NCBI GenBank assembly: GCA_973895155.1
Contig: OZ316895.1
Span: 11,603,858-11,667,857 of the forward strand
Reading direction: 5' to 3'
From: Marsupella aquatica
Taxonomy: Eukaryota; Plantae; Marchantiophyta
Length of the DNA: 64,000 nt
This document shows, piece by piece, positions 27,601 to 64,000 of this stretch. The notes below the pieces were generated by a model. That model saw nothing but the letters and a program-made list of their open reading frames with translations, did no database searches and was not told where the DNA came from. Both the position numbers and the translations under genes were made by a program. How positions within the stretch are numbered: the first letter of the stretch is position 1; every line of letters begins with the position of its first letter.

Positions 27601-29970
27601 GCAAAAGTTGTGAAAAGGTCAGGAGGCCCATATCTTCGAACAACCGCCATGGCATCCTGATAGGCCTGCATCATATGTCGTGCACTACCCCCATATGTGG
27701 ACGGTAAAATGTAGGTCCTGCCCACATTGCTTGCTTGTGCATCCCCGTCTTGAACTGCATCTTGTAGCCCTTGATATAACTCAGTCCTAAGCTTTTTCTG
27801 ATTGTTCCGAATATATGTGAGGCGTGTCTGGTCTATACACGCATATGCATCCACAACAAATTGCTTTAGCAATCTTCCTCCACGAAGCAGCCAATCATCT
27901 TCCCGCCTTGCATGTAACATATACGCATAGTATTGAAGTTGGGTCACCTTCTTAGAACCATTTCGTCCACCCCTGGCTCCTGGTTCAACAGCCACAATGA
28001 CCCCATCCTGGAATTCGTGCCCCGCCAACGGGATGTCATAAGACCATCCATCCTGTCCATGAGGAAAGAGTAAAACATAATGGAGCGGTGCATAGGACCT
28101 ATGCCACTCGGAAATCCGTTGTAGGCCACCATTCCTCTTCCTTAGGATTATATCCCTCCCACATGTTTCAATATCCTCATCTCCGACCATTATCACGCCA
28201 ATTTCATCTGGCGTCGGCTTATTGTAGCGCCTAGGGTCTGTGTCCCGCTCCGCTACAATACGTAGCAATACGTCTGGCACCTCGGTGCTGTCAATGCGGC
28301 TCCCTGCATTTTTAAAGACCCTCACATATGGATTGTACGTATGGAGCATCTCTTGCAAGGAAGCCAACACCGCCTGATCCAATTGTGGCATCCTATTCAT
28401 CCTGGAACCCAAAAAAAATCCATAAGACAGCTTATTCCAAAGATCATGTAATATGAAAGGAAATTGAGGCAAAAAGTTGTACATGTTAATTACCTGTTCC
28501 CCAACTCATTCCCTGTGTCATAAATATAGAGTTGAGCAAACTTTGGCCCCGCTCCATCAGGCGGCAAGAGGCTACCGACATGATGATATAATGCTCCTTG
28601 GATACGAAAGGAGTATGGGCCACGATTTCCGCCCCTTTCATCAATTTTAACACCTAGGGACGTAAATGCTAGTGCATTGTTGTAGCCATGAATGTTTTCC
28701 GGAATGCTACAGCTGCGGCATTGGTACCAATCAGCAAGCCTCGAAGTGGTTCAGGAGGAGCACCAAGCGGCGGTAATCCCACTTTCCCGTCGGCACAACA
28801 CATGGTGAAGCATGGGTTGCGTTGTGTTCCTGACTTGCACTCTTCCATCCAATGAAGCGCTTTGCATTGTGGGCACTCGATGTTCATTCGCCCCAAAAGA
28901 TGTCTACCCATTGCAGGGTCCAAAGGCTGCCTTGCCTTTGGCAACCGTTGGATCTCTTCCAATCTTTGACGCTCCCGCAACACGTCATCAGGATTGAGTT
29001 GAGCTGGGGTAACTGGTGCTAGGTTTGTGCCTCCCATTTCCTCTTGGAGGATATTCTCAATCTCGTCCTCCTCATATTCATTTGGCAAATCCAAGGTGCC
29101 CTCAATAAATGTGTCAAATTGACCTCCTCCGTCATCGAGGATAGGATTTTCCCCCTCGTGCAGAGCATCGTCAATGAGCCAATCTTTATCAAAGATGTCA
29201 TGGTTAGACCGTTCATTGTTTGGTATGGATTCATAGGGCATGGGGACGGCCAAAGGGGCAACCCCATCTTGTAAAGCGCCATGAATAAGCCATCCCTCAT
29301 CAAAGACATCCACATGTTGTGGCACAATGTTGGTCATGGGCTCGCACGGTGGGGGGATGGCAAATTCCTCTGGCTCAGGCTGGTCAACCCTACATGCGTC
29401 CAAGGCACCATCAATGAGCCATCCTTCTTCGAACATGGGAGGGTCAGATGCAACGCTCACGGGCGTCACTGCATGGCTGGATATTGCACTTGGGGCAACC
29501 TCTCGACTGTTATTGATAGCGATGGATCTGGCCAAGGCTTGTTGAGTAGCCCTGGCTTCACGGCGAAGCTCCCTTCCACTATTTGCGCAGCCAGATGCCA
29601 GAGTTGATTCCCCGGTTGATTCTAAACTTGCCCCCGCAAGGGAGAGCAACGGTCTCGCCAACGGTGTTGTTGGAGTTTTTCGTGGTGCCCTTGCTTCGCG
29701 CCGTAGTTATCGACCACTAATTCTGTGGGCAGGTGGCACACTTGGCACCACACCTGAACCACTTGGGGTTGGTGCCAAGAGTGCCACACTTGGTTCCAAC
29801 ACCGGGGAACCCATAGTTGGTGTGGCACTTGGTTGTGGCACTGCACAGACTCGAGCCCCCTTTTGCAATCGTCGTTGAGCATATTGTTGCCGACGCCTTG
29901 CATTTATTGCTTCCTTATTTTGGGCATGACGCTCACAATCAGCTTCCAGCCTCTCCCTTGGGGTTCTCAT
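24660..29970 (-). pseudogene. Helitron Rep/PIF1-helicase (RepHel), multiply disrupted
   Basis: Zn-finger-like CPQCKALHW...CCADGKV, HUH motif IEFQKRGLPHAHIL, KYLYKYCYKG, and PIF1 motifs DGPGGTG(Q)T, WDEAPM, GDF*Q, MTINKAQGQT, HGQLYVAFSR. Intron at 28402-28493. Stops at 29707 and 25609; frameshifts near 28697, 25985 and 25540. Confidence 0.93.
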
Positions 29971-32182: not shown

Positions 32183-32211
32183 CCATTATAAAGTTAATAT
32201 CCATGATTCGG

Positions 32212-39817
<7,606 letters not shown>

Positions 39818-42800: not shown

Positions 42801-45326
42801 TCCAAGAAGTCCTCCAATGAACTTCGTGTTGAGAAGTTATCATTGTTTATGTTTCATATTTTCTCTTAGTGTCGCGACCACCTTGACTCACGACTTGGGC
42901 TCACCCTTGGCCCCCAGGGAGACACCACTCCTCTCATATATGCTTCTGGAGACCTGTCACCCCCGGACCGGCTTTGGTCCCCTATATTTGGCCCTCAATC
43001 TGGACTCCAACCCGCATGCATGGGCACACAGCTAACTTGTTATGCCCATAACTTTCTAGCTAGACGTCCATAAGCGTAGTGTCTTAGCCCATTGTGATCA
43101 GGTCGATCCACTGCCAATGCCTAGGCCCTTAGAACCCTCATCAATTTGGGGTTCCAGACGGTCGCACCAGAGCCGCGTTGTATCTCTTGCATCAAACGTC
43201 CTTTGCGCATGAAGTAAACTTCATTAGCCTTGGGCCCAAGAGGAGCTCCCACTCAAGCCCTCAGAAATCAAAGTTTGACTTGGGGTTCAGACGGTCCACC
43301 TTGAGCCCGACCCTTCCCATGGCCGGACCAGCTCCCCAACCAGCTCCAAGCTAGTCTAAGTTAGTGTGTGTCACCAGCTTAGTGCCTTGCCCCTTGCTAG
43401 TGCAACCCCTCGTTGCCCACTAGTCTCCCCATACTTAGTCCCCTCTAGATGGCCGTTGCGGAGGCCTTGACCATAGAGGAGCTCGGCGTCGCAGTCAACG
43501 ACACCGGAGCTAAGTGTTAAGGTAGTCGAGTTCTACATTTTGCACCCCCGTTTAAAAATGGTCATGTCTGTTTGATCCAAAACGTTCCAATATGCCTAGA
43601 TCATTTTGGGTCTTAAAAATATTGTAAGGTAACAAATGGTTTGCCCATAAGGCTGATGCAAACCAAGTTGGTGTGCTCAATCCAAACTTAGGAATTTCTA
43701 ACCAGTCTCACTTATCAAAGTTGGACGCCAGTCTGGGCGAGTAAGCTAACTCCAAACTCATCAGACCCATTGTTCACTCCTCAAGGTACCAGTGCCCTTT
43801 CGATCCTCATTAGATCGAACAAACCTTTAACTTCCACTTGCAAAAAGCAAATCGGCCGCCCAACAACCTCTAGCGCCCACGCAATCCAACTTTATCATTA
43901 AGAGGCCAAGAGGAGTGAAACTAGGATACAACTAACCGGGCAACTAACAAAGGTAGCCACAGCTGCCTGTACCAGGTCACAACAACAATAAGCCGCTTTG
44001 CTTATGATAGCTATCAAGGATCTCTGGTGTATTACCCAAAACTTTCTTTCAGTTCCCAATTCAAGTACTTTTGGCTTGGTCATACCAAACCCACTTTACT
44101 AAATACTCCAAAATCTGTGTGGATGGACTGATACTTTGTCCATAAAACTCCCATGGAGAAGCCAAACTTGGATGGATTGGACTACTACAAAGAGATATGC
44201 TTGAATGTTGTTCTTGACACTTCTCTCCATATTTAACCCCTCTCAGGTCATCATTTCTCTCCAAAAAGAATCTTGTCTATGATTTCATGATCACTTGTGT
44301 CCAAAAGATATCATGGCACTTACCATAGGAGTCTTGATTGCAACCTTCCCTTTATTTGGGGGTTTTATTCTTTTATTATCCTTTTCCCTTCAAATAGTAC
44401 TCTATCTATTGTTTTAGAGTTCAATGAAAAAGTCAAAGACCCGGGATCAAAAAGTAAGGTACATCAGGTGTTGAGCACCTTATCTGGCCTTTATGGTCAA
44501 TGAAACTATGTGCAGACTAAGCACTTCACATTTTACTCATAGCCCCTCAAGTAGTTTCTTCAATATATTATGACAAAATGCAAAATGAATTCAATTTTCT
44601 TCAAGAATATTATTTATAATGGACTGCAAAATGTAATCTTTTCAAGGCACATATATTTGAAGTATTTGGTAAAATGTATTACCCCATGTTGCATTTGAGT
44701 TGCAACTTTGTTGGTTGCACATGTGTTGTGAGTTTGGGAGGGTGACCTGGCATAGCAGGTCACCTGGTAGGGGTGACCTCTTCACCCAGGTTACCATGCC
44801 TTTGTGCCATGGGGGTATACCTTGGAGAATGAGGGATTAGCTCCTCATTCTTCCAAGTTGAGCCTCCCGGCACTAGTAGAGCTCATGTGAGTGTGGCTAT
44901 GGTGAGAGAGAGAGAGAGAGTGTATGCCGGTTGGCATGTAGAGCGACATTGGCAGGGTTCTGCTATGTGTATAGACTTGGAGTCCCGCATGGCTAGCGGG
45001 TGAGTTTGGCTCGACTTAGTGATACCTTGCAGCGGGGTCCCGTTTCGCAAGAGATTGTTATGGATTTTGACGTACATGTGTTGTGTGTCGTGTGATTATT
45101 TGTTTTCTTGTTTACATGGTGTGCCGCGATGTGAGTTGTGTATGGATGTGTGTCCGCACGACAAATGAGCTAACTATGACCAAGCTTGGATGGACTTACT
45201 GATACGTAAAGCTCGGATAGACAACGTATCAGTCCATCCAGGCTTTAAGCTTTAACTATATAGAACTTGCATTGAAAAGATTGGGAGAGTATAGCATCAA
45301 CAAAATAAATAACTATGTGTATTTGT

Positions 45327-45680
45327 AAGGGAACATTATCCATCCTGGACCAGGATCTACAACAGAGTAATAAGGGCCAAGTTTGGTATCATTGGAAAGT
45401 ATTTTTTGTACCAAAAAGTCATTCTGAAACTCACTTTTTGACTTAGATATGGGCCGATATTCACCTCAAGAAAGTGGTGTATGGGTTTGTAAACAGCCCA
45501 AAATCAGATATCCAGTATAAATTTCCAAAAGAATTTCAAATAGCACACAATGGTTTAGAAAATCCACTTTGTACAGTTCTAAAACTTGTCTAGAGCTTTC
45601 TAATGGTACCAAGATTGCAAACAAACACTTTGTTGAGTGGGAGATTTTAACCAGAGAACTCCTCAATAGAGGGGCTAAAA
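45327..45680. repeat. Dispersed repeat / non-autonomous element fragment, copy 2
   Basis: Colinear with 17649-18010 in the same orientation. Confidence 0.75.
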
Positions 45681-45904
45681 TTATTGTCTTCCCCCAAACA
45701 CAGTGCCTGTACACTATATTTGAATAGTGTGCCAAGGGCCTTGTGTTTGAGTTTGACACTCTGTTTTGGATTTTTTTAATCTTGCGGCCTTGTGTTCAAA
45801 TAGTGACGTTGTGTTCAAATAGTGGCTCTGTGTTTGAATATTGACATTGTTTCAAATTTAGGCATTGTGATGAATTTCCAAAAATGGGACAAAATAGATT
45901 TAGG

Positions 45905-46258
45905 TGTTAGAAGATGGTGCATTTGCACTTGGATGTGTGGGGAGAAATCAGATCAGGAAAAACACTCCAAACATACACATGCTCAATAGTTACGTGGTTT
46001 GCCTCAAGGTTGGCTACGTCCACGGGAAGACCAAGCTTTATTAACGGTTATGTGTCTACTCAAGCATCACCATAGCTCTCATCTCTTCAAGCTCTCATCT
46101 CTTGCTATATCACTGTGTTCTCTCTTGAGAACTCTCTTGTGTGTTCTCACACCACATAGAAGTTGAAGAGATAAGGACCAACTCTTCAACTAGGGTTTAC
46201 TATAACCCTAGTTAACATACTAACCATAGTTCAACCCAAGACTGAGTTAACCTCTACA
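45905..46258 (-). repeat. 3' LTR of the Copia element (354 bp)
   Basis: Minus strand reads TGTAGAGG...TCTAACA directly after the PPT and contains CCCGTGGACGTAGCC...AAACCACGTA. Confidence 0.8.
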
Positions 46259-46451
46259 AACTCTCCCTTGACTCACGTCTTGGGAGGGTTCATAACATTG
46301 TCTTTTCCTTACAAGTTCCTTCGCGGGAAGTTCAAGACAGTAGGGCCAAAAGACCCTCCCCCTAATGCAAGGGTTAACTAGAACTAAGCCGTAGCCGATA
46401 AGCCATCGGATGGAGTACTCATATAGAGACATTTTCTTGGTTAACTCATAT

Positions 46452-49400
46452 TTACAATATTTGTAAATAATTACAATGCCTTGAAAAACTATTGGAGTCT
46501 AATACTTTGGTAAAAGCATCCGTTGGATTAAGCTTTCCATCAATCTTGACAAGCTCAAATTCATCATCCGATAATGCCTGTCGGATGAAATGATAGTGGA
46601 CATCAATGTGCTTTACCCTGCCATCCATCACCAGATTCTTGGCAGTGTAAATTGCACTTTGACTGTCACAATGAAGATATACACACTCCTGTGATAAACC
46701 CATTTCCGTGACAAGCTTTTTCAACCAAATGGTCTCTGATGCTGCTTCTGCTGCTGCTACATACTCGGCATCCATAGTAGACTTCGCAACACACTTTTGG
46801 AGAGTAGACTTCCAACTAATGCATCCACCAGCAAGTGTAAATACATATCCAGTTGTCGATCTCCTCTTATCCAGATCACCTGCGTAGTCTGCATCCACAT
46901 AACTTTGAAGCACTTTCATATTGTTTGAACTTGCATCAAACAATAAACCCTTCTTAGTGGAACCTCTGATGTAGCGCAAAATCCATTTCACTGCTTCCCA
47001 ATGAACTTTTCTTGGATTTGCCATGTATCTGCTTACCTTGCTAACGGCATAAGCTATGTCTGGTCAGGTGCATATCATGAGATACATTAAACTACCCACA
47101 GCATTTTCATAAGGAACTTTGGACATCAAACTTTTTTCTGTCGCATCCGATGGACAGAATGCTGCAAAAATATTAAAATGCCTTGCCAAAGGAACACTCA
47201 CAGCCTTAGCACCTGCCATGTTGAATTTTGAGAGTACCTTCTCTGCATATCTTTTTTGCGTCAGCCAAAGTTTGGCTTTGTTAACATCCCTGACAATCTC
47301 CATGCCTAGGATCCTCTTGGCTGTGCCCAAATCCTTCATCTTAAACTCAGAACTGAGTTGGGCTTTAAGCTTATCAACTTCGCCTCTATCCTGTGCTGCA
47401 ATGAGCATGTCATCCACATAAAGTACAAGGATGACAAGCTTAAAACCTGTGTTGTTCACACGCCTTATGTAAACACATGGATCGTACACGCTTCGCACAA
47501 ATCCAAGCGATTTCAAAAATTCATCAAAACGCTTGTTCCACTGCCTTGGGCTTTGCTTTAATCCATACAAGGATTTTAGCAACCTGCATACCAAATTTTC
47601 CTTGCCCTTTTGCACAAAACCCTCTGGTTGCCTCATGTAAATCACCTCATCCAACGATCCATATAAGAATGCCGTGACAACATCCATTTGATCTAAAACC
47701 AGATCAAATAAAACTACAAGAGCACATAGCAAACGTATTGTTGAATACTTTGCTACAGGTGAAAAAACCTCATTGTAGTCTATACCTTTTTGTTGAGTAA
47801 AACCCTTGGCTACCAACCGAGCCTTAAATATCTTCTCAGCATCCTCCGTGGGTCCATCTTTCTTCCTATACACCCACTTGCTATCAACAGTCTGCTTGTC
47901 ACTAGGTAGACTTGTGAGTTCCCAAGTCTTGTTATCATGAAGTGATTTTATTTCCATGCGCATCGCCGCCTGCCACTGTTGCTTCTCCATAGAAGCTAGG
48001 ACCTCTCGAAATGAGGATGGATCTCCATCTTTTGTCACCAATGCATCAATAGATTCTTCATCCAAATCCACTTGATCAGAAGGAAGCCAAGTACCATACC
48101 TTTCCCGGGCTTGACGTTTGCGAGTTCCTCTTCGCACTGAAGACTCTGGCTGATCTGATTGTAGTGCGCTTTGCCTTATAGTAGTGTCAACATATTCTTC
48201 ATTTGACACATCCTCTCCCCTTAAATCCTCTAGAGGAGGAGATTGCTCGTTGTTAGTAGTAGGGAATTGACCTATCTCCCCCTCCTTCAATGATTTGTCT
48301 TCATTGAAGGATATATCCCGACTAACAAGTAACTTGCAATCAACTGGATCCCACAATCGATATCCTTTAACGTCACGCTGATAACCAAGAAAAATGCATT
48401 TCTGGGCTCTAGGATCTAGCTTAGTCCTATTGTTGCTAGGAACATGTGCATATGCTTCACAGCCAAAAACCTTAAGCTTTGAATAATCAGCAGGTCGATT
48501 GTGCCATAGCTCAAAGGGGGTTTTGTAAGTAATTGCCTGACTAGGAGAGAGATTTACTAGATAAGCAGCTATGTTGACAGCTTATGCCCAAAAGATTTGT
48601 GGCAATTTAGAGTGGCTCAACATGCTCCTTGCTCGCTCCAACAATGTGCGGTTGAGTCGCTCAGCAACACCATTTTGCTCAGGAGTGTACACAGTTGTGA
48701 GATGGTGAGTAATTCCCTTATTTGCACAATACGTGTTGAACTCGCCAGAGGTGTATTCACCACCATTATCTGATCGTAGATATCTCACATTCTTTGCAGT
48801 CTGTGTCTCAACTTGAGTTACCCATTGTTTGAAGATGGAAAGCACTTCAAACTTATGGGCAATGAAATAAATCCAAACAAACCTTGAGTAATCATCGATA
48901 AACGATACATAGTATTGTTTGCCTGAATGTGAGGAAACCGGAGCAAGACCCCACACATCGGAATGAATATACTCAAGTATAACTTTAGAATGATGAATGG
49001 CAGTCGGAAATGGAGTTCTTGTTTTCTTGCCAACAATGCAATGATCACAAAAACTCAACTTGCATGCTTGCAATCCTGGTAGGAGATGTCGCTTGTGTAG
49101 GATTTCCAAACTTTTTTCACTCATGTGACCAAGCCGAGCATGCCATAAATTGATTTTCTCCTCCTGAGATGTGACCAAATTGACTTCGGCAAGAAGTGTG
49201 GTGCCTTTCAAGACATAGATGTTTCTTTTCCTCTTGCCAATAAGAACTTCAGTTGATCCATGCGTGACTGTTAACACCCCATCAGTTGCATTCCATTGAT
49301 AACCCTTCGCATCCAAGTAGCCAAGAGAAATCAAATTCTTATATACACATTTCTGGAATGTGTCTGACATTTGATAGAGTACAGTACTTGCCACCGGATA

Positions 49401-49926
49401 GTTGAATCTTTACGGATCCAATCCCTAAAACTTTGCAAGAATGATTATTTTCCATCAAAACAGATCCGTTGATAGGAGTGTAGGATGAGAAAAGTTCACG
49501 CATATAGCACATGTGATACGAGCAAGCGGAATCCAAGATCCATTGACAATCCTCAACTTGGGAAGTGGTACACAATGCAAATCCTTCACTATCCTCTTCT
49601 CGAACAACTACTTGGGCTGAAGAACCGGTAACTTCCTTGAATGTGTCTTTGACGTGACAATCCTTCTTCATGTGGCCCACTTTGTCACACTTCCAACACT
49701 TTATCTCACGAGTAGACTTGGATGGTGATTTGGATCGAGATCTAGATCTGGATCTAAACCTCCTCCTACCAAAAGATCGGTCGTGGAACCTTCCTCGCTC
49801 CATGGGAAGTGGGTTAAACCTTTTGTTTTCATGAGATGGCTCCCTTGATTTGCCTCTTTCTACCAACAATGCTGTTGATGATGAGGTTGAGGTAGGATGA
49901 GCTGAAGAAACCAGCTTAGACTGCAT
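46452..49926 (-). pseudogene. Copia gag-pol polyprotein with a frameshift and two in-frame stops
   Basis: CWKCDKVGHMKKDC; WILDSACSYHM (protease); LWHARLGH, YLRSDNGGEY, PEQNGVAERLN (integrase); QMDVVTAFL, SLYGLKQSPRQW, LYVDDML (RT); YVDADYAG, CDSQSAI, KHIDVHYHF (RNase H). Frameshift near 49340; stops at 48582 and 47064. Confidence 0.95.
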
Positions 49927-52900
49927 GCACTAGAAGAAACCGAGCCATTCTGAGACCCAACCTTACATGACTTGTGTGAGACCTTTGAAAATAAGTGACT
50001 CCAAGGTTTAGGGTGTCATCTTTGTTACATCTTCTTGACTCACTTTTGGTGAAGTTCTGGGAAGTCATGTATTTAACTATTGGGAAAGTTGCTTCTGTAA
50101 CTGAGTTAAGACAAGTATATTGAAGTTATATAAGTGACCATGACTTACATGATTTCCTTGCCCAATACATATGATTTTGGATCCATCATATTAATCACAT
50201 TATGTCATGCAATTATATATAGTTACCTCCCTTTGCTTTAACCATCACTGAGTTGCTCTTTATTGTTCCCCTATAAGAAAGTATACATGACATTTTTACC
50301 CTAATTGAAGTTTAGGTAAGTAGGGCAAATTTGTGATTCTAGCTAGACAAGAACCAACCAAATTTAAGTTAACATTCATGTACACGGCCGCAACTGAGTT
50401 CAAAAAGGTGTGAAAATTTGTGCCATGCCCCCAAAAATAATGATGCACCCTAAACCCTAATACTCTACATACATAGTTACCTTAAAAAAGTCACCACAAC
50501 CAATTAGTGGTACTTGTCACATACTGCTCACACACATATTAAAACTCACTTCATCCACTAACTCATTTTAAAAATTTGCTCTGCATATATACCCCATAAT
50601 TAGCCAATATCAAATGGAACCCCCTTCATATGGGAATATTGAAGGGCCCAATTTAGGACCTCTTTTTCCTTAAGTGCACAATGCAATGCCGTTGCATCAA
50701 TTTCTCTATCGGAAGCCCTCTTCCAATGAACCATGTTGCGCAATTGCAAGTTGATACAACTGGCAATAGCTTTTGCCCTAAACTTTTGACTGCCAAAAGC
50801 TTTTGTGGAGGGACTTGGAGAAAGAGAGAGTGCGCCCGCAAAGTGAGAGTCTTGTTGTTTCATGAGTGGGAAAGTTTTCACATCTTGTCAAAGCAGTCGT
50901 CTAGTGTGCGCTTGCTTGGGTGAATCCTATCGCGCAACTTGCTATCGAGTTGCATCCCTTGCACACAGAGAGGTGAAGTGTTGTTGTTTGGCAAGCGGGA
51001 AGGTGCCACTCTCACATTATGAATTCCATCCTAGGTTTACCCGAGTGAATCCTATTGACCTACGACCTTCAAAGAAGTGTAGTGACAACTTTTGGTGTGC
51101 TCGCTTGCTCACTGTGGCCTATTCACGAGGAGTGGTCTTGTGCGGATTGGTGAGGTGGAGGTGGAGCAGTACTGTGGACAGGGGGCTCTAAAGGTTTATA
51201 AGGTGCATGCGGTGGGGGTCATCCAGGACATCATCATCGAACAAAGGGACGACGACGATTGTGAGTATGAGTTTGCATTGTTCTCTACTGGGTTCCGAAT
51301 TGAGTTTTGAGCTGTGGTGGCTTAACAATGGTTGCGGGTGGGACCTCCCAGGGGCAAGGGGACGGCGCCGAACGTTCCTAGGAGGATGCAAAATAGACTT
51401 GTGCTACATTAGGATCCACATCTGTGTCTCTGCCTTGCCTTATTGATGGGAATCTACAGTGCATTTGGATTGGGAAGGTGAGAGCTGTCTATAGAATGCG
51501 TCGAAGCTGATTTTTGTTCAGATTTGGTCTTATGGAGAAGTTGATTCTTCTCTGCATAATGCTGCCTTGCTGAGCTGCATTGGGCTATGATGCGGGAGGT
51601 ATTCATCAAACGGCAAGCTTTTGGCTGCAGCTACCAAGTGTAAGTTTAGGGAGTTGAGAGCGGAAGCTGCCAATTTGGAGTTGCGAGTGTTCAAATTTGA
51701 GTGAGTTGGGGTAGTGAACGTTGAGCATCAACCTGCAGGGAGGTGCGACAGAAGTCTACTTCTGTGGCAGAGTGAGCTGAGCAAGTGCAAACTACGGGAG
51801 TGGAGCATCGTGGCTGCAACATTGACCGGGACTTTTTTTGCGTTGGGCACTGTGAGTAAGGCAGTCTACGGAGGCGCGAAAGAGTCGCGAGGAGTCGAGT
51901 TCAGCTACGGCAGTATTCACTTCAGTTGTCTCAATGTGGTTGGCGTGAGCTGCAGGTGAGCTTAGCTGTGTGCACATTTCATGTAAGTCAGGTGGTCGGT
52001 GTTTTAGGCATTGCGGAACTTGATTGACCACCCCATGGCTAAGGTTTAAGGTGCGGACTACAACAAATATGTGTTGTTGCTGAAAGTGTTGGTGGTGAGC
52101 GACAACTGGTATTGTTTCAGCTAAAGGGAGCACATTGGAGCTTGTGTATCCATGACCTGCGACCGATTGCGGCTGCCTGCTGTTACAATTGCCGAATCAA
52201 TCATGCACCCAATCTTGCGGGCAGACACAACTTTGCGGGAGTGTTGAAGGTTTAGGGTGAGCAACAGCGGAGAGCTCATTGCTTGGTGGCAGGGTTGAAG
52301 GTGGATGATCGGGCTGCAAGGCCAACCAGGGACTTGTTTTGCATTGAGCGATTGCTGCGGATTGCTACGCAGCTTCAGTTAGGGCGGCTTGGTGCTACAT
52401 CGGCACAGGTAAGGCTGCAATCCCCTATCGACGCGGACTCACCTCGTGACTACAAGTATAGTTGTCTAGGTGATGTATGCATTGCGTGTTTAGGGTCTAG
52501 GTGACATCGCTGCTAAGCAAAATTTGTGAGCTGCCTAGGTCCATTGCCGAATGTTGCTTCCTTTAAATTACCTGGTGCCTGCTGTTACAATCGCCTGCTC
52601 AATCATGCACCCAATCGCCTGGAGCTCATTTGCCTGGAGCTTCATCCGTCAGATTCAAACTGTTATTGCTGCTCTGCCCTTTTGCCATGGGTTGCCGGCC
52701 TACCGGATGCTATCAACAGATTAAGAACAAGTCATATCCTAAGTCCCGGTGTTGCAGTGATGTCCCCGACCCTAAGATGCTTTCCGAACTCATCTTTCTT
52801 GTTTCCTGTTGCTGCTGATGTATGTATGTTCTCCCCTATTTTTGCTTACAGATTGGTCTCTCCACACTTCTTGCTTGACATGATTGTTTTGCTCCTCCCT

Positions 52901-52982
52901 GTATCAGAACATGCCTTGTGCCCGGCGGTGGGGTGGGGGGGTGAACAGACGACCTTAAGGTTCACTACATTTCTAGGAACTG

Positions 52983-53136
52983 TGCATCTTTCAGCTGATT
53001 TTAGCCGCAAGTTCCCTTGCTTTCCCCTGTTTTTGCTAAGATCCCTCCCACTAATCACATGCATCTTTCAGCTGATTTTAGCTGCAAGTTCCCTTGCTTT
53101 CCCCTGCTTTTGCTAAGATCCCTCCCCACTAATGAC
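52983..53136. repeat. Tandem duplication, 77-bp unit x2
   Basis: TGCATCTTTCAGCTGATTTTAGC...CCCTCCCACTAAT at 52983 and 53060. Confidence 0.9.
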
Positions 53137-54333
53137 ATGCATCCTTTACTTTTCTCGGTGGCCCGTGCGCCTGCCTTCCTACTTTCGTTCTTATGGACTC
53201 TCCTTAGGTTTTCATTCACCTGGTTTTGGACTTTTTGCTCCGGTGGAATCTGTCTTGACAACTTGTGTTTGTTCTAATTGTTAATATCTCAAGAGGGTCG
53301 TCAACTAAGCTGAAAGGAGTCAAAGCTAACTACAAGCTAGCAAAATAATACAGAGAATGCTCCCAAGTCGAGTCAGGAGGAAGTTACTAAAACTAGACCT
53401 TCACAACTCTCGAAACTGGAAAGTGAAATTCAGCGTGAGACACGTAGCTGAAGGCCACAAGGATAACTATATGGCCACGCTGTCCCCCATTCAAGTCCAA
53501 AGTCCTCTTCAGATTGTCTGAACTCCTATTGAATGTATTGAATAATTATTTCATCACAGAAATTTTCAGAACAAACACGGAAGCACCAGGGGGCTGAGGA
53601 TTAGGTATTGAGGCTGAAGACATTGAGGTCATAAACTAGGTGTGGTTCGGGTGACAATGTTAGCAACTGATGCTTCTTCAGGGGAACTTCCCATGTGCAG
53701 TTTATCCACACATGATTGACTTTGGTTCTTGCTGTTTTTCTTTTGGTGTACTCTTGAGTTTGGTGTCACTCTATCCTTTCCTGTAGCCTCGAAATAGGAA
53801 CACACCTGCTTAGTGGTCCCCAATCGCCCAATGATTTATAATGACTGTGTCTAGGTGATGTATGCATTGCGTGTTCATTCCAGAAGAATGAATATGTACA
53901 CTTTGCACAAACCTGGACAGATTTTGAATGTTATTTATCTGAGTTTCTGTTTGTGAGCTCTGACTTGGAGCCTTAACATTTGTGTTTCTGTGGGGCTGAG
54001 CAGAGTTTGTTCCGTCTAGAAGCTGCTGTACTGAAGTGATCAGCCTCCAGCTTGGAGGTGAATCTTCAATTTTTTGTGGATCCGAGTGACTTCTGTCCAG
54101 CTGAGTTTTGCTTTGTCGGGACGATTGTGTTTGGCTAAGATGCTAGATTGTGGCTTGTCTTCTTGCTTCTAGCTTGTGTATTTTCAATTAATAGAAGTTG
54201 GGAACGAAGTGATAATTGAATTTCCTTATATTAAGCATCTTCACCTAGAAACTCAATACATAAACTCCAGGATTCCCTCGGGACATAAAATGAGCCAAAT
54301 TGTCTCAAAATTGGGAACCTGCACCCGCACTAC

Positions 54334-54676
54334 TCAAACAATTGTGTTGGGCTTGGTGGCCTTGTAAGTCTTCTTTAGCTTTCACAATGGAGGTTGAATC
54401 TTGCAGTACGTCAAGGGGAACTTGATCTTTGAATCATGGAACTGCTTGGTACTTTCTCGCTTGCACAGAGAGACAGGGACTGTCGTAGTCTTCATGATCT
54501 GGATGCAAGGGAACCGAACTCTATGACAAGAAGCCATCTCATCATACATCTGCTCTGCAGCTCCGTTTCTTGTGGTATCACAATATTCCTTGTACATGTT
54601 GTGATAACCTGTACGACTCTGATACGTGGACCCAGATACCGAAGTTCTTAATTGTGGTGGGCTTCTTTTTGAAGAT
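54334..54676 (-). pseudogene. RPL18A: 60S ribosomal protein L18a (eL20) 3' exon fragment
   Basis: [15 protein letters not shown] [frameshift] [18 protein letters not shown]...RVRFPCIQI...[18 protein letters not shown]...PPL*KLKKTYKATKPN. It begins at a CAG acceptor; the 5' exons were not seen. Confidence 0.92.
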
Positions 54677-55678
54677 CTGGTAGACACATTATTCAGCATT
54701 TGCTAACTTCAAAACTAGAAGGGTAACACATTAAACAACAGAGAAACTCACAACATCCTCCTTTGGTCCTTCAGAGTCTGTACTTTGATTCTGAAGTTTG
54801 ACTGAGTTTTTGTTTACTAAAAGAATGTGACTATGTAAGAGTTCCGTTTGGCAGTGGATTGGTTGAAGCACTTCATGCTAGTGTGTTGTCCACAGCTCTT
54901 CAACCAGCTTTCGTCTTCCTTGTCTTTCACCACTTACGATGACATCAATTCAGCTAAGACCATAGAAGGTTCCAAAGCATCTAACTTGTAAAATCGCATT
55001 CTGTTACATCAAGGACTAAGGTGTTGGGTGCCAAAGGAGACAGCACAACAAACACGCTGAAAAGACTTCAGGACTGGGTTCAACAAGGTAGTGAAGGTGC
55101 TTAGAGCCATAGTAAGTATGCATTCTGTATCTTTCTCTGTTGATGTGAGCTTGTGCATAATGGGAGTTGTAGTTGGCAAGAGTTCCAAATATGAATAGAT
55201 CCAGAAGTATGTGATCATGTACTTGCTCTATAAAGTTCTGAAGATATAAGCATTTTCTGTTAGACCAGGCAACTTGGGAGTTGGTAAGTGTCACTTGCAT
55301 CTGAGGGGCGGGGCATCAGTGGAGGTTCACTTGCACAACACGACAACCAGTGAATTTTCTCTCTGCTGCAACCTGCAAGGTGAGACTTTCGGTCTTTCTG
55401 GATGAAAAAACAGGAGTTTAATATGATTGATATACATGTCCGTCGAGAATATGGGTTTATCACCAAGCTCTTTGTCTTAGGAAACTCATAAACTCAGAAT
55501 CAAATATGTACTATGCACGTTTCATGCTATGTGTATACTATGACCTGTAGTTGGAACCAAGACAATGAGTGGGAACTAATTAGTTTAGGTGGTTGCTGTT
55601 GGCGAGGCAAGTCGACCTCCTGCTCACCTTGCTCATCAAAGGACGTGAACAGAGGACATCACAACGAAAGCAACACTT

Positions 55679-56128
55679 ATGGTGAGGACCCGCAACGCTG
55701 AACATGTGCGACTTGCACGCAAGGCAGAGATGTTGCGCCTTGAGTATGTCAGACTTGGGATCCTTCCAGCCCAGTCTGCATGGTACTTTGAGTACCCTGT
55801 TGTTTCCAGGAACAACTACAGCCGGCCTCTACCTGCTTCAGTACCCTTCCCGACATCCTTGGTATTTGTGTCTCTTGTACATGACCAGCCACAAATTAGG
55901 TGCCAAGGGTGTGTACACAGTTGCCAATATGACTGTCCTGCCTGTAGGGCTTCTGGCCCAAAATTGGATGACCGTTCTCTTGGATGCCGATTTTTGCACA
56001 GAGCACAATGTATCATCTGGAACCACTCGCCATCCTGCAGTGTGCCTGGTGATGTCACTTGTCCTGCCCTCCCAGACCCCACCACCGGTGACTTTGGTGT
56101 CTACACATGTTTGGATCACATGCTCTAG
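55679..56128 (+). CDS. Cys/His-rich hypothetical protein (149 aa), possible zinc finger
   Basis: ATG-initiated open frame MVRTR... with CQGC, CPAC, CRFLHRAQC and CLDH. Same strand as the neighbouring cargo ORFs. No family recognised. Confidence 0.4.
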   Translation: MVRTRNAEHVRLARKAEMLRLEYVRLGILPAQSAWYFEYPVVSRNNYSRPLPASVPFPTSLVFVSLVHDQPQIRCQGCVHSCQYDCPACRASGPKLDDRSLGCRFLHRAQCIIWNHSPSCSVPGDVTCPALPDPTTGDFGVYTCLDHML

Positions 56129-56743
56129 AGGACCACTTGTCACACCGCATGCACAGACCAGATACCATTGACCTATAGCTTAACACTCTGACTTCAACAC
56201 AGAGGATATTTACTTAAAATTTTGATGTATGAGCAATTTTGGGTCCAGGGTTTAGGGTCAACAGTACATAACTTATATCCTATTATGCCTGCACTAAGCA
56301 AAATATCCTAATTTAAGAGGCTAGCAAACTCGCATAAAAGTCTCTATTGAAAGACTGCTTTCATGACTGCTTTAACCTGGTGAACATTGCAACGTTGAAT
56401 GAATTAATGGGCCATGTGATAATATGCAAAATGATTTATGCCTCACTTATTTGTCTCAGCCACTATCATAACCTATTTAGGATGTATAAATTTCAACCCT
56501 TATGACACTGCTTCATACCAATCCTCTTCGAAGAATGCCTGTTTTACATGTCACGACTATTGTATGTGATTCAAATGCATGAAATGTTGTTGCAGATCTC
56601 CTTTGGTGAATCATAGCCACAATTAAAATTGAGGTGTTGGTGGAGAAATTGTATTAGGGGATCAGTTTTGTGTGTGGGCTCAACATACCAAAAGTATGTG
56701 TGCTCTGCATCCTTGTGTGGCCATTCCAATTCATTGCAGTAGC

Positions 56744-56887
56744 AAATGCCTTTGTACCTTAAATGCTAAATATATTTTACTTTCTGTGCAGTCTGCTAAA
56801 TTGTAGAGTCTATCTAAATGCCTTTGTACCTTAAATGCTAAATATATTTTACTTTCTGTGCAGTCTGCTAAATTGTAGAGTCTATCT
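56744..56887. repeat. Perfect tandem duplication, 72-bp unit x2
   Basis: AAATGCCTTTGTACC...GTAGAGTCTATCT at 56744 and 56816. Confidence 0.92.
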
Positions 56888-56898
56888 CATGCGCAGGC

Positions 56899-57579
56899 AT
56901 GGCACGGCCTAAAATTCAAGCCAAAAAGCGTGTGACAGAGGTGAGAAACACAGGTGTACTTGGGGCAGATGCTACTAACTTCTCTGCAAGTCAGATTTTC
57001 CAGAAGGCAGCTCATTGTTGTGCCATTTGTGACGATGGTGGGGGCCTGGTCATTTGTGAGGGCCCTTGCATGAGGCATTTCCACCTCAACCCGGAGTCTG
57101 ACCTTGCTGCAGAAAACAACTGTCCAGGGGTGGGCCTCCCGTCAACACACCAGGGAGACTGGATGTGCACTGATTGTTTGGAGAAGCAGGCTAAGTGTGC
57201 ACAGTGTGGGAAGTTGGGGTCCTATGAGGGCTCTGTTGATGCTGCAGCAAATGTTAGGAAATGTCCAGACCGTTTTTGTGTGAGATTTTTCTGTTTTGAG
57301 TGTTTGCCTGCTCATGCCACAGCTTGCCCACTTCATAGGTGCAAGGCATGTGGTGAGCATGATGATGACTACTGGACTGACATAGTCCACTGTGCTAGGT
57401 GTCCCACTATGTGGCACTATCATTGCCTGAAAGATCATCAAGCAGAGGGTTATGCTTGTGACAGAGAAATCTATGATCACTCTGCACATGGTGTTGATCG
57501 ATGGATATTTTATTGTCATCGCCATGCCATTGATCCTACCTCGCGCACTCCTGTGAGAGATCACATATCTTGGCTGTGA
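56899..57579 (+). CDS. Stand-alone EDM2-like composite PHD finger protein (226 aa)
   Basis: CAICDDGGGLVICEGPCMRHFH...C..C...CAQCGKLGS...CPLHRCKAC...CARCPTMWHYHCL...IFYCHRHAIDPTSRTPVRDHI. The pattern, including the terminal TPVRDH, matches my recollection of the plant EDM2 PHD region. The ORF is uninterrupted. Confidence 0.85.
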   Translation: MARPKIQAKKRVTEVRNTGVLGADATNFSASQIFQKAAHCCAICDDGGGLVICEGPCMRHFHLNPESDLAAENNCPGVGLPSTHQGDWMCTDCLEKQAKCAQCGKLGSYEGSVDAAANVRKCPDRFCVRFFCFECLPAHATACPLHRCKACGEHDDDYWTDIVHCARCPTMWHYHCLKDHQAEGYACDREIYDHSAHGVDRWIFYCHRHAIDPTSRTPVRDHISWL

Positions 57580-58171
57580 AGCTGAACATTGTACATGCAC
57601 AGTGCACCTGATGTGGATGTACTATTTTTTGAGATTGCAGAGATTCCAATTTTGAAAAGGAGTTGGGTAGGCGAGTTTATATAGGCAGCACTTATCTTGT
57701 GCTCTGGCGTCAGTGGCTGGGTACATGCCTATACAAACTTATCCTTACAAGCCTTCTTGGAAGTATTTAGGCTGAGTGGTCATTTTCATAAACACTTTCA
57801 TCACACTGCTAAATTAAAACAGGACTTCTAAGTTGTAAGCGTATAAATTATCAGGCATGCAATTAATCAAATTGCCCTATAAGTTTGTCATTGAATGTAT
57901 CCTCCTTTACAACAAAATATGTATGTGCCATGACAAGTTGGTTGCACTTCATTTCACCACGGATATGGATTTTGTAGTATATATTCAAACAATGTCCTGC
58001 ATCCGTGCAGGTGCCTAGTACGTATTGTTCACATATCCCTTGTACCTATCAAAATCGGACCTGAGCACCAGTGGGCCAGATCAACTCAAAAAGCAGGAAT
58101 TTTGTTGTCCTTGTATTGTCAGGTGAACCCATTCTTCCAAAATTCACTGTCATCACGTAGGGTGTGTGTAC

Positions 58172-59044
58172 ATGGAGCCTGGTAAACGTAGAAAGTGTGA
58201 CCACCCAGCAGTGTTTACAGGGGTCAGAGCGATTTTGGTCCATGGCCAGCATGGGTTGACCAAAGTGCATTGGCCAACTGTACAGAAACGATTCTCTGAG
58301 CTCCATGGCACTGTAGTTCAGGACATCACTCCAGAGACTCCACATGTTGTTGCAGGGACATGGCTATCAGTGATAAAGAAGTGGTCATGGTCCTACATGA
58401 ATTCTGCAATTACTAAGCAAGGCCTAAAAGTAGTTGAGGCCTCTTGGATCACAGATTCCATAGCACATAAGATTGTACAGGATACTGAGCAATATGAGTT
58501 GTGGGAGGATGAAGAAGCTACTGCATCAGCTTGGGCTGAACAAGAAGTCTGGGAAGCAAAGGCACGGCTTGCTGATCTCCAATATGGACCTGTACTCAAC
58601 AAAGGACAGAGCTCTACAAGGCTGAAGAGTATGTTGGCTGAGGAGACGAAGCAACCAACCCCCATTCTGAAAGGGCTGAGCCTGGTATTTGTGGAGGCGG
58701 GAATTGGAGAGGTTAAGTGCAAAGTGTACAAGTCCACAGTGCTTGACCTAGGTGGGACAGTGGAGGAGAATATAACAGAGGACACCACTCATGTCATTAC
58801 TAAGTCATATCCCAAAGCCTGCCGCAAGTTTGGGAAGGGAGACATTCGCTTTTATGTCATGTCCCATAATGTGTTTGTGGTTTCATATGCTTGGCTTGTG
58901 GAATCAGTAGCAGCTAGGAAGCGTCAAAACCCAATGGACTATGATCTTTTTGAGGCCTGGCCACGGAAGGGTCAGGATCCTTACAGAGAGGACTATGAGA
59001 CAACAAGTGAGGAATGGGTCATTAGCGATTCTGAATCAGAGTGA
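58172..59044 (+). CDS. Tandem BRCT-domain protein (~290 aa), DNA polymerase lambda-type BRCTs
   Basis: Two repeats with BRCT hallmarks: VFTG..HGTVVQDITPETPHVV...VVEASWITDSI...YEL and ILKG..LGGTVEENITEDTTHVI...KFGK...SYAWLVESV...YDL. Basic N-terminus KRRK and acidic tail. First ATG at 58172. Confidence 0.8.
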   Translation: MEPGKRRKCDHPAVFTGVRAILVHGQHGLTKVHWPTVQKRFSELHGTVVQDITPETPHVVAGTWLSVIKKWSWSYMNSAITKQGLKVVEASWITDSIAHKIVQDTEQYELWEDEEATASAWAEQEVWEAKARLADLQYGPVLNKGQSSTRLKSMLAEETKQPTPILKGLSLVFVEAGIGEVKCKVYKSTVLDLGGTVEENITEDTTHVITKSYPKACRKFGKGDIRFYVMSHNVFVVSYAWLVESVAARKRQNPMDYDLFEAWPRKGQDPYREDYETTSEEWVISDSESE

Positions 59045-59618
59045 GGAGTAGTAGCATCAGTTTGGACACAAGTTTTTTTGTATAAATCAGATCATTGAAA
59101 TAAATGTGATCTTTGAACTAATGTACCTTGTTATGGTTGGTGGCAGTTGGGCTTATTTTACTGTTGGCGGATTGTTGTTTCCTGCTGCCTGGGGGTGTCA
59201 CTGTAAACGTACATGCAGAGGTGGTACATTTGAGGACAGCGGAGGAGGTGGTGACACCCTCCAACATTTAGGAATTTTGTGTCATTCACTTGACAATAGG
59301 TACACTACTTGCGAACCTGTTTTTTTCTTTTGGGGTGGTTTAGGGTTTGTGAGAATTTAGTACACGTTATGTTAACTCTTTTGGCAGATACAGTCAGGGA
59401 TATATGGAACACAAATACCACCATTAGGCATCCTTGTTCACTGCTGTCCATGACTGCAGAGCTCCCAGCCTGTTACAATGCACCCTAGTCACCACCCTCC
59501 CCAGACCCAGCCCAGGGCACAGGCACTGCCTTTGCATCATCCCACAAGGATATCACGCCATGATAATAAGCTTTGGCAGCGTGAAAGGTTATGAACCAGA
59601 CTTTCAGGAGCCAGTAGG

Positions 59619-62600
59619 ATGAGATGTCCTTGTGCAATCTGCCAAGGATCCCGTACCAGGGGTCTGAATGAGGTTTGGCGGCATATCGCGGTTCATGGAA
59701 GAGATCCACGACATCGAGTTTGGAATGATCCTGCAGAGGAAGATTCTTCCGACGAGGAGTGGAGGTTAGAATTTGATGCTGCCAATGCTGCAAGACGGGC
59801 AAGTGAGGTTCTGCCTGGTGCATTTGAAAATGTTGTAGCTGGTCTCTGTGGGTTGTCAGCTCTCCAACGGGATGGTGCTCAGGCAGCACCACGTGACGAA
59901 GGAATTCATGTGGAAGAGATGGTGAGAGACATCTTCCAAGACTTGGATGCATTTCATGATGGGCTGGACAATGAAGAGGATACGGCTGCAGATGCAAGTG
60001 TGCCCCCTGTCGAAGAGCCTCTTGATGAGTTTGAGATAGGGCAGGAAACCCTTGGGCATGATGGGATGTTTGGCTCTCCCCTGCAAATACAGGAAGGCAG
60101 GAAGTCTTTGTACCCCGGTAGCAAATGTTCTAAACTGGGATTTGTCATCATGTTCCTGAACATTTGCGGCAACCACAATGTCCCCAACGTTTTGGTTTCT
60201 GAGTTGTTGGCATTCTTGCGAACAACTGTGCTACCAGATGGTAATATTTTGCCCAAGAACATGTACGAGGCAAAAAGATGCATATCTAATCTTGGATTGA
60301 ACTATGATTCGATCCATGCTTGTCCTGATGGGCATGTTCTTTTCAGAAAGGAGTATAAAGAATCGTTGACATGCCCTAAGTGTGGGAAGCACAGGTATCG
60401 GAACTCAGGAAAGTCTATGGTTCCCGCCAAGGTACTTCGTCATTTTCCACTCATTCCCAGACTTCAGCGGATGTTCAGAAGCCGTGCCATCTCGGAGATG
60501 ATGACTTGGGCAACTGACAAGAAAAGTGATGATGGGCTACAACGACATGCTGCAGATTCAAGGCAATGGAAACTCATAGATGAGATGTATCCCGAATTTG
60601 CTGCTGAGCCAAGGAATGTCAGACTTGGGCTGTCATTGGATGGGGTAAACCCATTTGGAGACAAGAACAACAAATTTTCATGCTGGCCTGTAACTATTTT
60701 GAATTATAACCTTCCTCCTTGGATGACTACAAAGCGATTTTTTGTTTTGATGGTCCTACTGATACCAGGGCCAGACAGTGCTGTATCTGCCAACATAGAT
60801 GTGTTTCTGGCTCCCCTAGTGGAGGAATTGAGAAAGCTTTGGGAGGAAGGAGTTCTCACATATGATGTCCTACAGAGGCTTGGGAGGTTAAACCCATTCA
60901 TCCTTAGAGCCATTGTCATTCTGACTATAGCTGACTACCCAGCCCATGGGATGATATCAGGCCAAACAACAAAAGGATATTGTGCTTGTACTATCTGTGG
61001 GCGCAATGTCACCAGTGAGTACTCCAGAGCCCTGCAGAAAGTGATATACATGGGCCATCGTCGTTTTCTGAAGGCAGATCACCCTTACAGAGAAAGACAG
61101 GCACTGATTGCACACTTTGGCAATGAGATTGAGCAACGTGGACCCCCGGCACGAGTGACCAAAGAGGAGATCAGGCAGTGGGGAGCACTGAGGGATGACT
61201 ATATCAAACGAGGGGGCAGGGAAGATGGAGTGAGTGATCCAATAAAGCGATATGGTGTAAAAAGACTGAGCATATTGGACTTGGAGCTCAAGTACTGGAG
61301 GGTAAGCCTCTTGGAGTTGATGCTAATTGGGATACATGTTTTGGTTCAGAGCATGTGCATTCATTTGGAAGAGAGAGACTAAACTTGAGGCATTTCCTGA
61401 CGCTTTTGCATTGCAACGATGCAGGAGTTTGAGCCAAGCAAACATAACATTGATGTTATGCACATTGAAAAGAATATTTGTGAGAGTCTACTCAGATTCT
61501 TGTGTGGAGAGAAAGACACTGGTTCAGTGAGATTGGATCTTGAACAGAGGGGAATGAAACCCCATCTTTGGTTGAGGCCACATGCCCACAGAGCTGATGT
61601 GCTCTTGAAGTACCAAGCGCCCTATGTTCTGACAGACACAGAGTGGGAACTATTTGTGCAGAGGTTGAGTTCTTTGAAGGTTCCTTCAAACTATGGCAGT
61701 GCTTTCAAGAAGCATATCATGACTAGAAAGCTTGGTAGTATGAAAAGCCATGACTACCATATGTTGATGCAACAGGTGTTGCCTTTATGCCTGAGGGGCC
61801 TGTTGCAGAAGCCTGTTCGTACTGTGATCATGCGACTCAGTGATGTGTTTCGTCGTATTTGTGTGAAGGTTTGGGATGAAACACACTTCCCACAACTGAC
61901 AGAAGATGTCGCTCAGGTGCTGTGTGACCTGGAGATTTATTTTCCTCCCGCATTTTTTGATGTCATGACCCACCTACTTGTCCATGTTGTGGAAGAGCTA
62001 CACCAATTTGGGCCTGTGAGTGCTCGTTGGTTGTACCCTTTGGAACGGTACATGAAGCTACTCAAAGGTCACGTGAGAACATATTACAAACCTGAAGCAA
62101 GCATGGCTAAAGGTTACATCAAGGATGAGACTCTGGGATTTCTGACCGAATACATAGCACAATATGAGCATGTGAAGACCAGGGTGTGGAATTCTGATGA
62201 GGAGGAAGGGGTGATAGGTGAAGTACTGGAAGGGGCTGCAACCACAAAGAACCTGACCATATCTATGAGAGACTTGGCACATGACTTTGTATTGCACAAC
62301 ACTGTGGTGATGGAACCCTGGATACAGTGAGTGCATACATGTGCTATAATCCAGTTCATGAGCTTAAATGTTGTGTTCGTGTGGTTTTCTCCTTCAGCCT
62401 GTTTATGTTTACCCAAGCTAATGCTGTGTGGTTGTTCGTTCAGGGAGTATGAGTCATTGAAGGCGGCCCATCCCACTACAGGAACAACTTTTCCAGGTTT
62501 CATGGAGTGGATCAGAGTGGCAATTAGAGAGCATCACGAGACCCACCTAGACATGGATGCAGATGTTTACCTACTGTCTAATGCCCCTAGCCTGAAAGTG

Positions 62601-63209
62601 AAGACTTACAAACGGATGAGAGCATATGGGAATCACTTCCGAGTGAAGGATGGTGACAGTGCCTACAGGGTGACGAATGACTGCGGGCTCATCACTGTAT
62701 TTGAGCAACAGAGCCACAATCACGACAGGGCCTGGATGGAGATGGGATATGTGGGAGAATTAGTTGACATATGGGCTCTGGACTATGGGGCGGTGTCCAG
62801 TCCTGTGATTCTTATGAAAGGTTCATGGGTGCGGCAGGATTGGCTTGGTAACAGGGCTACCATGAAGAGAAACAACGACGGTTTCTTGTTGGCCAATTTC
62901 AGAGGGAAATTGCCCGAATGGTCTGAGCCATTTGTGTTTCCTAGTCAGGTGGAGCAAGCTTTCTTCCTGGATGTGGAAGACTCCCCAGGTTGGCGTGTAG
63001 TGTGTCATAAACAGGCCAGGCAACGCCGGATGGAAGGATCAAACCTTGAGTTTTATTTACACTCTCATAGTGCCTTTGATCGTCGGCGTTCAGACCAAGT
63101 GCCTGTAGTTCATGATAGCGGGGACTTCATTCCTGTGACAAGGGTAGATGCATTTGCTGAAGGAGGCGAATTCAAAGATGCAGATGCCAACAGTGTGCCT
63201 GTGCCATGA
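59619..63209 (+). CDS. CACTA/EnSpm transposase (TnpD/Tnp2-like; Transposase_21, DUF4218 and DUF4216-type regions), 3 exons, ~1116 aa
   Basis: Exons 59619-61301, 61425-62326, 62444-63209 (GT-AG, 3351 nt, in frame). Motifs RCPC..C, IHACPDGH, LRHFPLIPRLQRMF, RNVRLGLSLDGVNPF, NLPPW, ADYPA, IDVMHIEKN, MKSHDYH, FFDVMTHLLVH, WLYPLERYM, EPFVFPSQVEQAFF. Confidence 0.93.
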
Positions 63210-63365
63210 GTAATGTGAATTGTTTGCATAGACATTAGTGAGGGGAAGGATGTGTAATAAAGTAATTCTGAAGCAACACAGATGTATGGATGGATGCCTA
63301 GTGATTGTGGTTGCATTGTGTTATACGGGGTGACCATAGATGACATGTTTTTGTGGTCCAGTAGG

Positions 63366-63845
63366 ATGGAACAGAGTGACACAAAGATGTGTGAGTATGA
63401 AAGGAAAGCTATGGAACAACGAGCATACGTGAAAGCCAAAATCGCAGAACTGGATCTGGAAAAGGATGTGGCTGAATTGTAAGGGAACGATTCTCAACTA
63501 CACCCCTCCGCTGAGTTTGTGTGACATGAATAGTTCAATGTGGCACTGAAATTGTGACTGTATTCTCATATTGGAATGTCGCAGAGCCACAACATTTTCA
63601 AAGAAACAAAAGGAGTACGCAAGAAGGGTGACCAGCACTATCTCTGGGCCTGTGCGTCGGAGTGACAGGTTGAGCAAGAAGGTCGTACCTACAATGGCAG
63701 AATGTGGAGATGACATTGATGCTGCACAGGTGGGTGCAGACACTAGACAAGAAGATGCAGATGATGAGTATTTTCCAGAGGAAATGGATGAGGATGGGGG
63801 TTATGAAGATGAATACATTGCAGAGCAGCCCCAAAAGAAACATGT
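63366..63845 (+). CDS. Probable start of a second CACTA gene (fragmentary, continues beyond the window)
   Basis: MEQ...CEYERKAMEQRAYVKAKIAELDL, then PVRRSDRL and an acidic tract, separated by putative GT-AG introns. The exon model is not resolved. Confidence 0.4.
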
Positions 63846-64000
63846 AAGTAGTTTTCCCAACAAGGTTTTGAGTTAAAAACTCTTGTTTAGAGGTTTCATA
63901 TGTTCAGTACTACACATATGTACCTTGCTTAGTTCCTGACATTGTAGTTGGTGATGTGATGCAGCGTCCTGCCAGTTCTGTTTTGCCTTCGAAGCCTGTG

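Follow-up and report, generated by a model that had tools for sequence, protein, structure and literature searches.

Accessory and anti-silencing genes are already known in the CACTA/EnSpm superfamily of transposons. The TnpA protein has anti-silencing activity, and a survey of 962 Spm proteins mentions accessory domains that are not named in its main text (both in 10.64898/2026.08.24.746577), while the accessory proteins of Arabidopsis EN/SPM elements include a co-opted NDX-B domain (PMC13547354). The host protein EDM2 binds H3K9me2 chromatin at transposon-associated polyadenylation sites and suppresses the use of these sites; it also restrains CHG methylation in the bodies of genes close to repeats (PMC7529245). 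Its PHD repeat is described, as unpublished data, as binding histones in a modification-dependent manner (PMC3632883). Here we analyze a stretch of 64,000 nucleotides from the liverwort Marsupella aquatica (contig OZ316895.1 of assembly GCA_973895155.1, positions 11,603,858 to 11,667,857 of the forward strand), called the window below. Its last 14 kb contain the left part of a CACTA element in which three open reading frames (ORF1, ORF2, and ORF3) precede the transposase. These ORFs probably belong to the element as an old and selected set of accessory genes, one of which encodes an EDM2-type PHD protein and another a double BRCT protein.

Three conserved genes ahead of the transposase

The three co-oriented open frames of the initial annotation were confirmed. 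ORF1 (149 aa, 55679–56128), ORF2 (226 aa, 56899–57579), and ORF3 (290 aa, 58172–59044) are all open on the plus strand. When the stretch was simulated 1,000 times with a Markov model, an ATG-initiated ORF of 290 aa or more arose in none of the simulations, one of 226 aa or more in 2, and one of 149 aa or more in 28; ORF2 and ORF3 are far longer than chance gives. Searches for stand-alone homologs, which covered only proteins of similar length, found two homologs of ORF1 (56% identity over 97% of its length), five of ORF2 (217–245 aa, 37–82% identity), and two of ORF3 (294–295 aa, 54–59% identity). The starts of these homologs align with the ATGs of the window and their ends lie at or near the same place. 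The start codon of each of the three ORFs is its own and is conserved. Of the clusters that were looked up, 15 of stand-alone PHD proteins and those of ORF1 and ORF3, none had a source in NCBI or UniRef; the three families were found in unannotated assemblies only and are thus missing from standard protein sets. On the evidence of their sequences, the three ORFs are old, deeply conserved gene families and not decaying cargo. Full-length diverged homologs and conserved zinc ligands agree with the earlier view that they are maintained.

The same interval holds a piece of real cargo, a captured fragment of a plant RPL18a (eL20) gene on the minus strand (54382–54750). As had been noted, it is antisense and decayed, being partial, frameshifted, and interrupted by a premature stop. 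It is most similar to plant eL20 proteins (E 1e-40, whereas animal proteins reach 1e-21), which makes the host a plant. A one-base difference at position 54628 inside the fragment is variable among copies in two of the sequencing runs described below, which indicates that copies differ in the extent of decay of this cargo.

ORF2 encodes a triple PHD module of EDM2 type that stands alone and has a basic N-terminus. Pfam gave PHD matches only, and the protein aligns with residues 225–432 of Arabidopsis EDM2 at 30% identity (E 2e-27). A profile of the family, searched against 1.84 billion representatives, had 564 matches. In the list of 150 of these, short proteins rank first, followed by long ones named ENHANCED DOWNY MILDEW 2, and 15 resemble the stand-alone set more than they do EDM2. 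Both these names and the alignment bear out the EDM2-type identity proposed earlier. The atlas match is an NSD-like PHD cluster of Streptophyta at 0.92, and the first finger also matches the H3-tail reader AIRE (E 1.3e-5).

A tree was built from 42 rows, chosen by hand from the 145 that cover the domain. All nine stand-alone proteins group there in a single clade (100/100) with a long stem, and the other 33 rows, which are longer or of EDM2 type, fall outside it. Because the tree lacks a true root, it does not show which of the two forms, stand-alone or EDM2, is the older. A separate clade of EDM2-like PHD proteins of 620–770 aa (P0019, P0022, P0024, P0030, and P0035) was also seen; the two of these that were looked up are from liverworts, and among long proteins those of this clade give some of the best matches to the stand-alone family.

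Across nine full-length members of the PHD family (35–82% pairwise identity), cysteines are kept in 161 of 176 cells (91%), against 724 of 1,494 (48%) for other residues. A deletion that removes about 20 aa of the second finger is common to the stand-alone members, whose N-terminus is basic where that of EDM2 is acidic. In 10 of 23 family sequences it begins with M-A/T-R-x-K, presumably a resemblance to the histone H3 tail, which we take as a lead only. With 226 aa, PHD matches only, and the full EDM2 architecture absent, ORF2 is to be called EDM2-derived or EDM2-related, not EDM2. Just upstream of it lies a perfect 72-bp tandem duplication (56744–56887), likely very recent, which doubles the acceptor-like site of the ORF.

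In ORF3, about 50 aa link two BRCT domains, and the tail of the protein is acidic. The tandem BRCT of the initial annotation was recovered by Pfam as two stretches (E 6e-12), which are 25% identical to each other (E 7e-12); ORF3 is an internal duplication of a BRCT domain. Atlas matches were generic BRCT clusters only, all under 0.9, and the predicted structure is of low confidence (mean predicted local distance difference test score, pLDDT, 30.5). The repeats may resemble the BRCT domain of plant DNA polymerase lambda, which remains a lead, the human domain matching only at E 1.2.

The first component, ORF1, has nine Cys/His residues invariant among three homologs and is, judging from them, a likely, still putative, metal-binding protein (pLDDT of the predicted structure 57). 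Its former description as Zn-finger-like thus stands for the conserved Cys/His and not for a family, as Pfam assigned it to none and a Foldseek search of its fold yielded nothing below E 0.001 (best Z 3.7).

The element, its base signature, and its copies

Membership of the CACTA/EnSpm superfamily follows from two features, a terminus beginning with CACTA and a Tnp2-family DDE transposase. The left terminus, CACTAGAAGAAA, occupies 49928–49940 on the plus strand, and the ATG immediately 5′ of it (49925–49927) would be the expected 3-bp target-site duplication, with its partner outside the window. The terminus coincides with the abrupt start of a minus-strand Copia gag frame (zinc knuckle, Pol_BBD), which belongs to a Copia retrotransposon (46452–49927, minus strand; 3′ part of gag, protease, integrase, and reverse transcriptase) interrupted by the element; the 5′ part of gag is absent from the window. 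An exact match, a preceding ATG, and a cut Copia gag together confirm the terminus that had been proposed at this position. CACTAGAAGAAA is the sole exact match to the end pattern within the 64-kb window, where matches with up to two mismatches (18 seen, 13.3 expected) are not above chance. No alternative flanks at 49928 were present among the sequencing-run rows listed.

No continuation of the Copia proteins was found by tblastn inside 49928–64000. The 12 TAGTG sites of this interval all differ from the 13-bp end by at least four mismatches and none is followed by ATG, from which we conclude that the right end lies beyond the window. A right end upstream of the ORFs was also looked for, and none was seen in 49928–64000. 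The left arm (49941–51427) is non-coding and, unlike the remaining element, CHG-depleted; no subterminal repeat array was found in it near the left end, where short degenerate motifs might escape detection.

The CACTA (TnpD-type) transposase, annotated earlier as intact and spliced, proved to be so. Its plus-strand exons lie at 59619–61301, 61425–62326 (DUF4218), and 62444–63209 (DUF4216), and Pfam identified Transpos_assoc, Transposase_21 (E 1.5e-70), DUF4218 (E 4.6e-28), and DUF4216. The exons join in frame to 1,116 aa across introns 61302–61424 (GTAAGC..CAG) and 62327–62443 (GTGAGT..CAG), a model that is one of several in-frame choices and was preferred because of its canonical donors. The D, D, CxxC, and E motifs are present in the protein. 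An open acidic stretch on the plus strand (63550–63876), which has no Pfam match and ends near a GTAAGT donor-like site, is probably the first exon of a downstream gene in the TnpA position that runs past the end of the window. Directly after the transposase there is also an ATG ORF of 66 aa (63282–63482, plus strand), which might be a fourth small accessory gene; its end is charged and coil-like, and Pfam gave no match.

The element has a distinctive base composition. From about 51430 to 64000 it is CpG-poor and CWG-rich (observed/expected 1.37–1.54), in coding and non-coding parts alike. The ratio is 1.54 in the cassette formed by the three ORFs, 1.48 in its spacers, and 1.43 in the transposase, against 0.72 in a Helitron and 0.63–0.97 in Copia; cassette and transposase do not differ (p 0.86), and both differ from the Helitron (p 1e-4) and from Copia (p 0.02), a contrast that rests on two comparator elements with boundaries chosen after looking. 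Cassette and transposase share one CpG-poor, CHG-retaining signature.

Other parts of the window also contain repeats. The Helitron is present as Rep/helicase remains split into several frames (24660–29706, minus strand; Helitron_like_N E 1e-57, Pif1 domains). Positions from about 9080 to 17000 and 32210–40400 form an 8-kb direct duplication, 23 kb apart, with matched blocks 87–97% alike; CpG is far less depleted there than in the transposons, and the second copy holds a fragment of a glycosyl hydrolase family 1 gene (33735–34190). At 19022–20878, direct repeats alternate with inverted ones in a foldback-like cluster that has a period of 154 bp and arms of up to 107 nt, and a 275-aa open frame at 5656–6483 (minus strand) has no Pfam match.

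It is useful to compare this copy with others in public sequencing runs. Nine runs under six organism labels match part of 55400–63400, five of them at half or more of the words; none is listed as an RNA run. Four were compared as contigs over 45001–64000 (19 kb). The two closest runs gave 6,820 and 13,581 contigs over the 19 kb, half or more of them less than 99% alike, and up to 20 contigs carry one and the same variant inside the cassette. This abundance of variant contigs points to a multi-copy region. A deletion joint from 55821 to 56643 is common to two runs and keeps the order of ORF1 and ORF2, and single contigs connect the end of ORF3, and others the start of the transposase, with the intervening spacer. 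Among the 12 best-supported of the 129 indel rows, 9 lie in 55145–59618; none of the 9 is within the ORFs, which make up 45% of this interval (p about 0.005 if placed at random). In a more distant run with another organism label, contigs fall mostly on ORF2, ORF3, and the transposase and hardly at all on the spacers; since genes cannot be ranked by contig depth, this coverage is a hint only.

Possible roles and competing explanations

If the three ORFs travel with the element, then we can ask: What would they do for it? Our answer, for and against which we see the chances as about even, is that the window holds the left part of an apparently intact plant CACTA element with its own selected accessory genes, whose PHD protein aids transcription despite silencing. 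The ORFs would be selected through the element's own transposition, so that the zinc ligands persist in the family even as single copies decay once inserted. An element of at least four consecutive genes would need full-length transcripts through silenced chromatin. ORF2 may bind H3 tails on the element's chromatin and keep the internal genes transcribed, letting such transcripts be obtained through the long multi-gene body. More tentatively, at chances below even, ORF2 could mimic or decoy EDM2, which would fit the CHG-retaining signature. BRCT domains are linked to break repair, and the double BRCT protein could engage host break-repair factors at excision or insertion sites, a role that we regard as doubtful; ORF1 would likely be a small metal-binding partner. 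The three together might form a chromatin toolkit in which the EDM2-like reader frees the element body of CHG silencing, the BRCT protein steers repair, and the metal-binding protein joins them; as a whole this is rather unlikely, and within it the basic N-terminus of ORF2 may in addition mimic the histone H3 tail.

Several observations weigh against the favored explanation. No contig includes both a cassette gene and the transposase, nor was a second complete copy observed. The first 2 kb past the terminus have far fewer and shallower contigs than the cassette, and this difference, together with that in base signature, suggests that terminus and core may not have a single history. Besides the small number of comparators behind the CWG contrast, the duplicated host-like segments also reach CWG values of 1.22–1.26. 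Five of the seven coding substitutions shown, drawn from 40 of 1,323 rows and for the most part apparently private to the window copy, alter the protein, among them both of those that lie in ORF2 and ORF3, and so lend no support to selection. Among the 15 representatives of the PHD family, 7 switch, as judged by eye, into unrelated sequence in mid-domain. Frequent disruption among copies, which the initial annotation had named as a sign against maintenance, is thus partly present; these frameshifts fit copies decaying after insertion and argue against single-copy host genes. When loci were searched with the PHD alignment, none of the 112 candidates from metagenome contigs and none of the 29 from viral contigs was confirmed. 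With the transposase as query, one of 54 candidates was confirmed; it is a distant element (34% identity) that extends just 641 nt upstream of its match and yields no information on a cassette. On the functional side, the BRCT matches of ORF3 to solved structures are weak and name no partner, and ORF2, being without the other domains of EDM2 (DNMT1-RFD and, according to PMC7529245, methyltransferase-like and further domains), need not act like it.

The main rival to EDM2 mimicry holds that the element-borne PHD protein reads the target site, steering the transpososome to a chromatin state, after which the BRCT protein hands the insertion to repair. All evidence of conservation and copy number fits this equally, the AIRE match of the first finger is to a plain H3-tail reader, and the copy in the window landed inside another transposon. 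However, ORF2 is separate from the transposase, with no fusion and no known binding between them, and targeting alone does not predict the CHG-retaining signature of the body; we hold target-site reading to be unlikely. A different origin for the cassette, from another mobile unit or as a unit moving among transposon families, with its position due to nesting or recombination, would account for the change in contig cover and base signature 1.5–2 kb inside the terminus. The PHD family, at 35–82% identity, may predate this CACTA subfamily, and in fungi the anti-silencing TET/JBP genes pass among 11 DNA transposon lineages (PMC12730594). Such an origin is nevertheless improbable, since neither another pair of ends nor long internal repeats could be found in 49900–64000, the cassette points the same way as the transposase and matches it in base signature, and there is a weak joint from 54103 to 63891 (one contig, with 25 letters on the short side).

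Gene capture by CACTA elements is known (PMC13317346), and the decayed RPL18a fragment and the many broken PHD family members could suggest that the ORFs, too, are passive Pack-CACTA cargo, amplified with a recently active element and not yet decayed. Yet ORF2 is only about 30% identical to host EDM2, forms its own deep clade, and selectively retains its cysteines, whereas RPL18a is still near its source and already broken. As none of the 15 stand-alone PHD clusters had a source in NCBI or UniRef, passive cargo seems quite improbable. We give the least credit to the idea that splicing joins the ORFs, as coding exons, into a single long product such as an extended TnpA-like protein or a fusion with the transposase, which is very improbable even with T-rich acceptor-like sites 35 nt before the ATG of ORF2 and 49 nt before that of ORF3, and with En/Spm elements known to yield several products by splicing (PMC13547354). 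Against it, homologs (for ORF1 and ORF3, those among proteins of similar length) keep the start Met and matching stops, and each ORF stops before a donor would be needed. Returning to the element-borne accessory set, we consider its genes well supported as conserved and their travelling as a cassette moderately supported.

Comparison with known systems

The initial annotation knew of no described CACTA family with this combination of genes, and our literature searches found no paper describing one either; Repbase, which lay outside the search, may hold a consensus. The words "PHD" and "BRCT" are absent from the main texts of PMC13547354, PMC13317346, PMC12730594, and 10.64898/2026.08.24.746577.

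The closest relatives of the element are maize En/Spm and Arabidopsis EN/SPM, with which it has in common a CACTA terminus, a Tnp2-family transposase with DUF4218 and DUF4216, and extra genes arranged head to tail. It differs from them in having three separate genes upstream of the transposase, with a histone-reader and a BRCT protein instead of a helix-turn-helix DNA-binding protein. With EDM2 and the NSD-type proteins, ORF2 shares the same atypical PHD array of 2.5 fingers up to the closing P-x-R-D-H motif, and nearly all invariant Cys/His. In contrast to EDM2 it has 226 aa and not about 1,300, lacks the DNMT1-RFD and C-terminal domains, is intronless, falls in a separate clade, has the deletion of about 20 aa in finger 2, and carries a basic, not an acidic, stretch before finger 1. 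ORF3 resembles the tandem BRCT readers of BRCA1 type in its two BRCT domains. A 226-aa protein offers a tool for testing the EDM2 module on its own, and with a BRCT protein carried by a transposon, the passage from transposase to host break repair could be tested directly.

Pack-CACTA elements also hold captured host fragments inside CACTA ends, as the RPL18a piece is held here; their cargo is fragmentary and near its donor, whereas ORF1–ORF3 are whole, far from any donor, and members of conserved families. The fungal TET/JBP transposons, EnSpm among them, likewise carry a host-type epigenetic gene as a separate ORF in a complete element (PMC12730594), in their case an enzyme acting on DNA and not a plant histone reader or BRCT adaptor. 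VANC of the VANDAL (Mutator-like) elements is, like the proteins discussed here, a transposon-encoded accessory protein, and has been proposed to counter silencing (PMC10398659); it is a sequence-specific DNA-binding factor of a Mutator-like element, and was compared with the ORFs by description, not by sequence. The plant anti-silencing factors VANC and TnpA recognize DNA motifs. If our explanation is true, a stripped-down EDM2 reader module would provide an escape route from silencing at the level of histones, and the element would represent a histone-level anti-silencing system distinct from DNA-binding VANC and TnpA.

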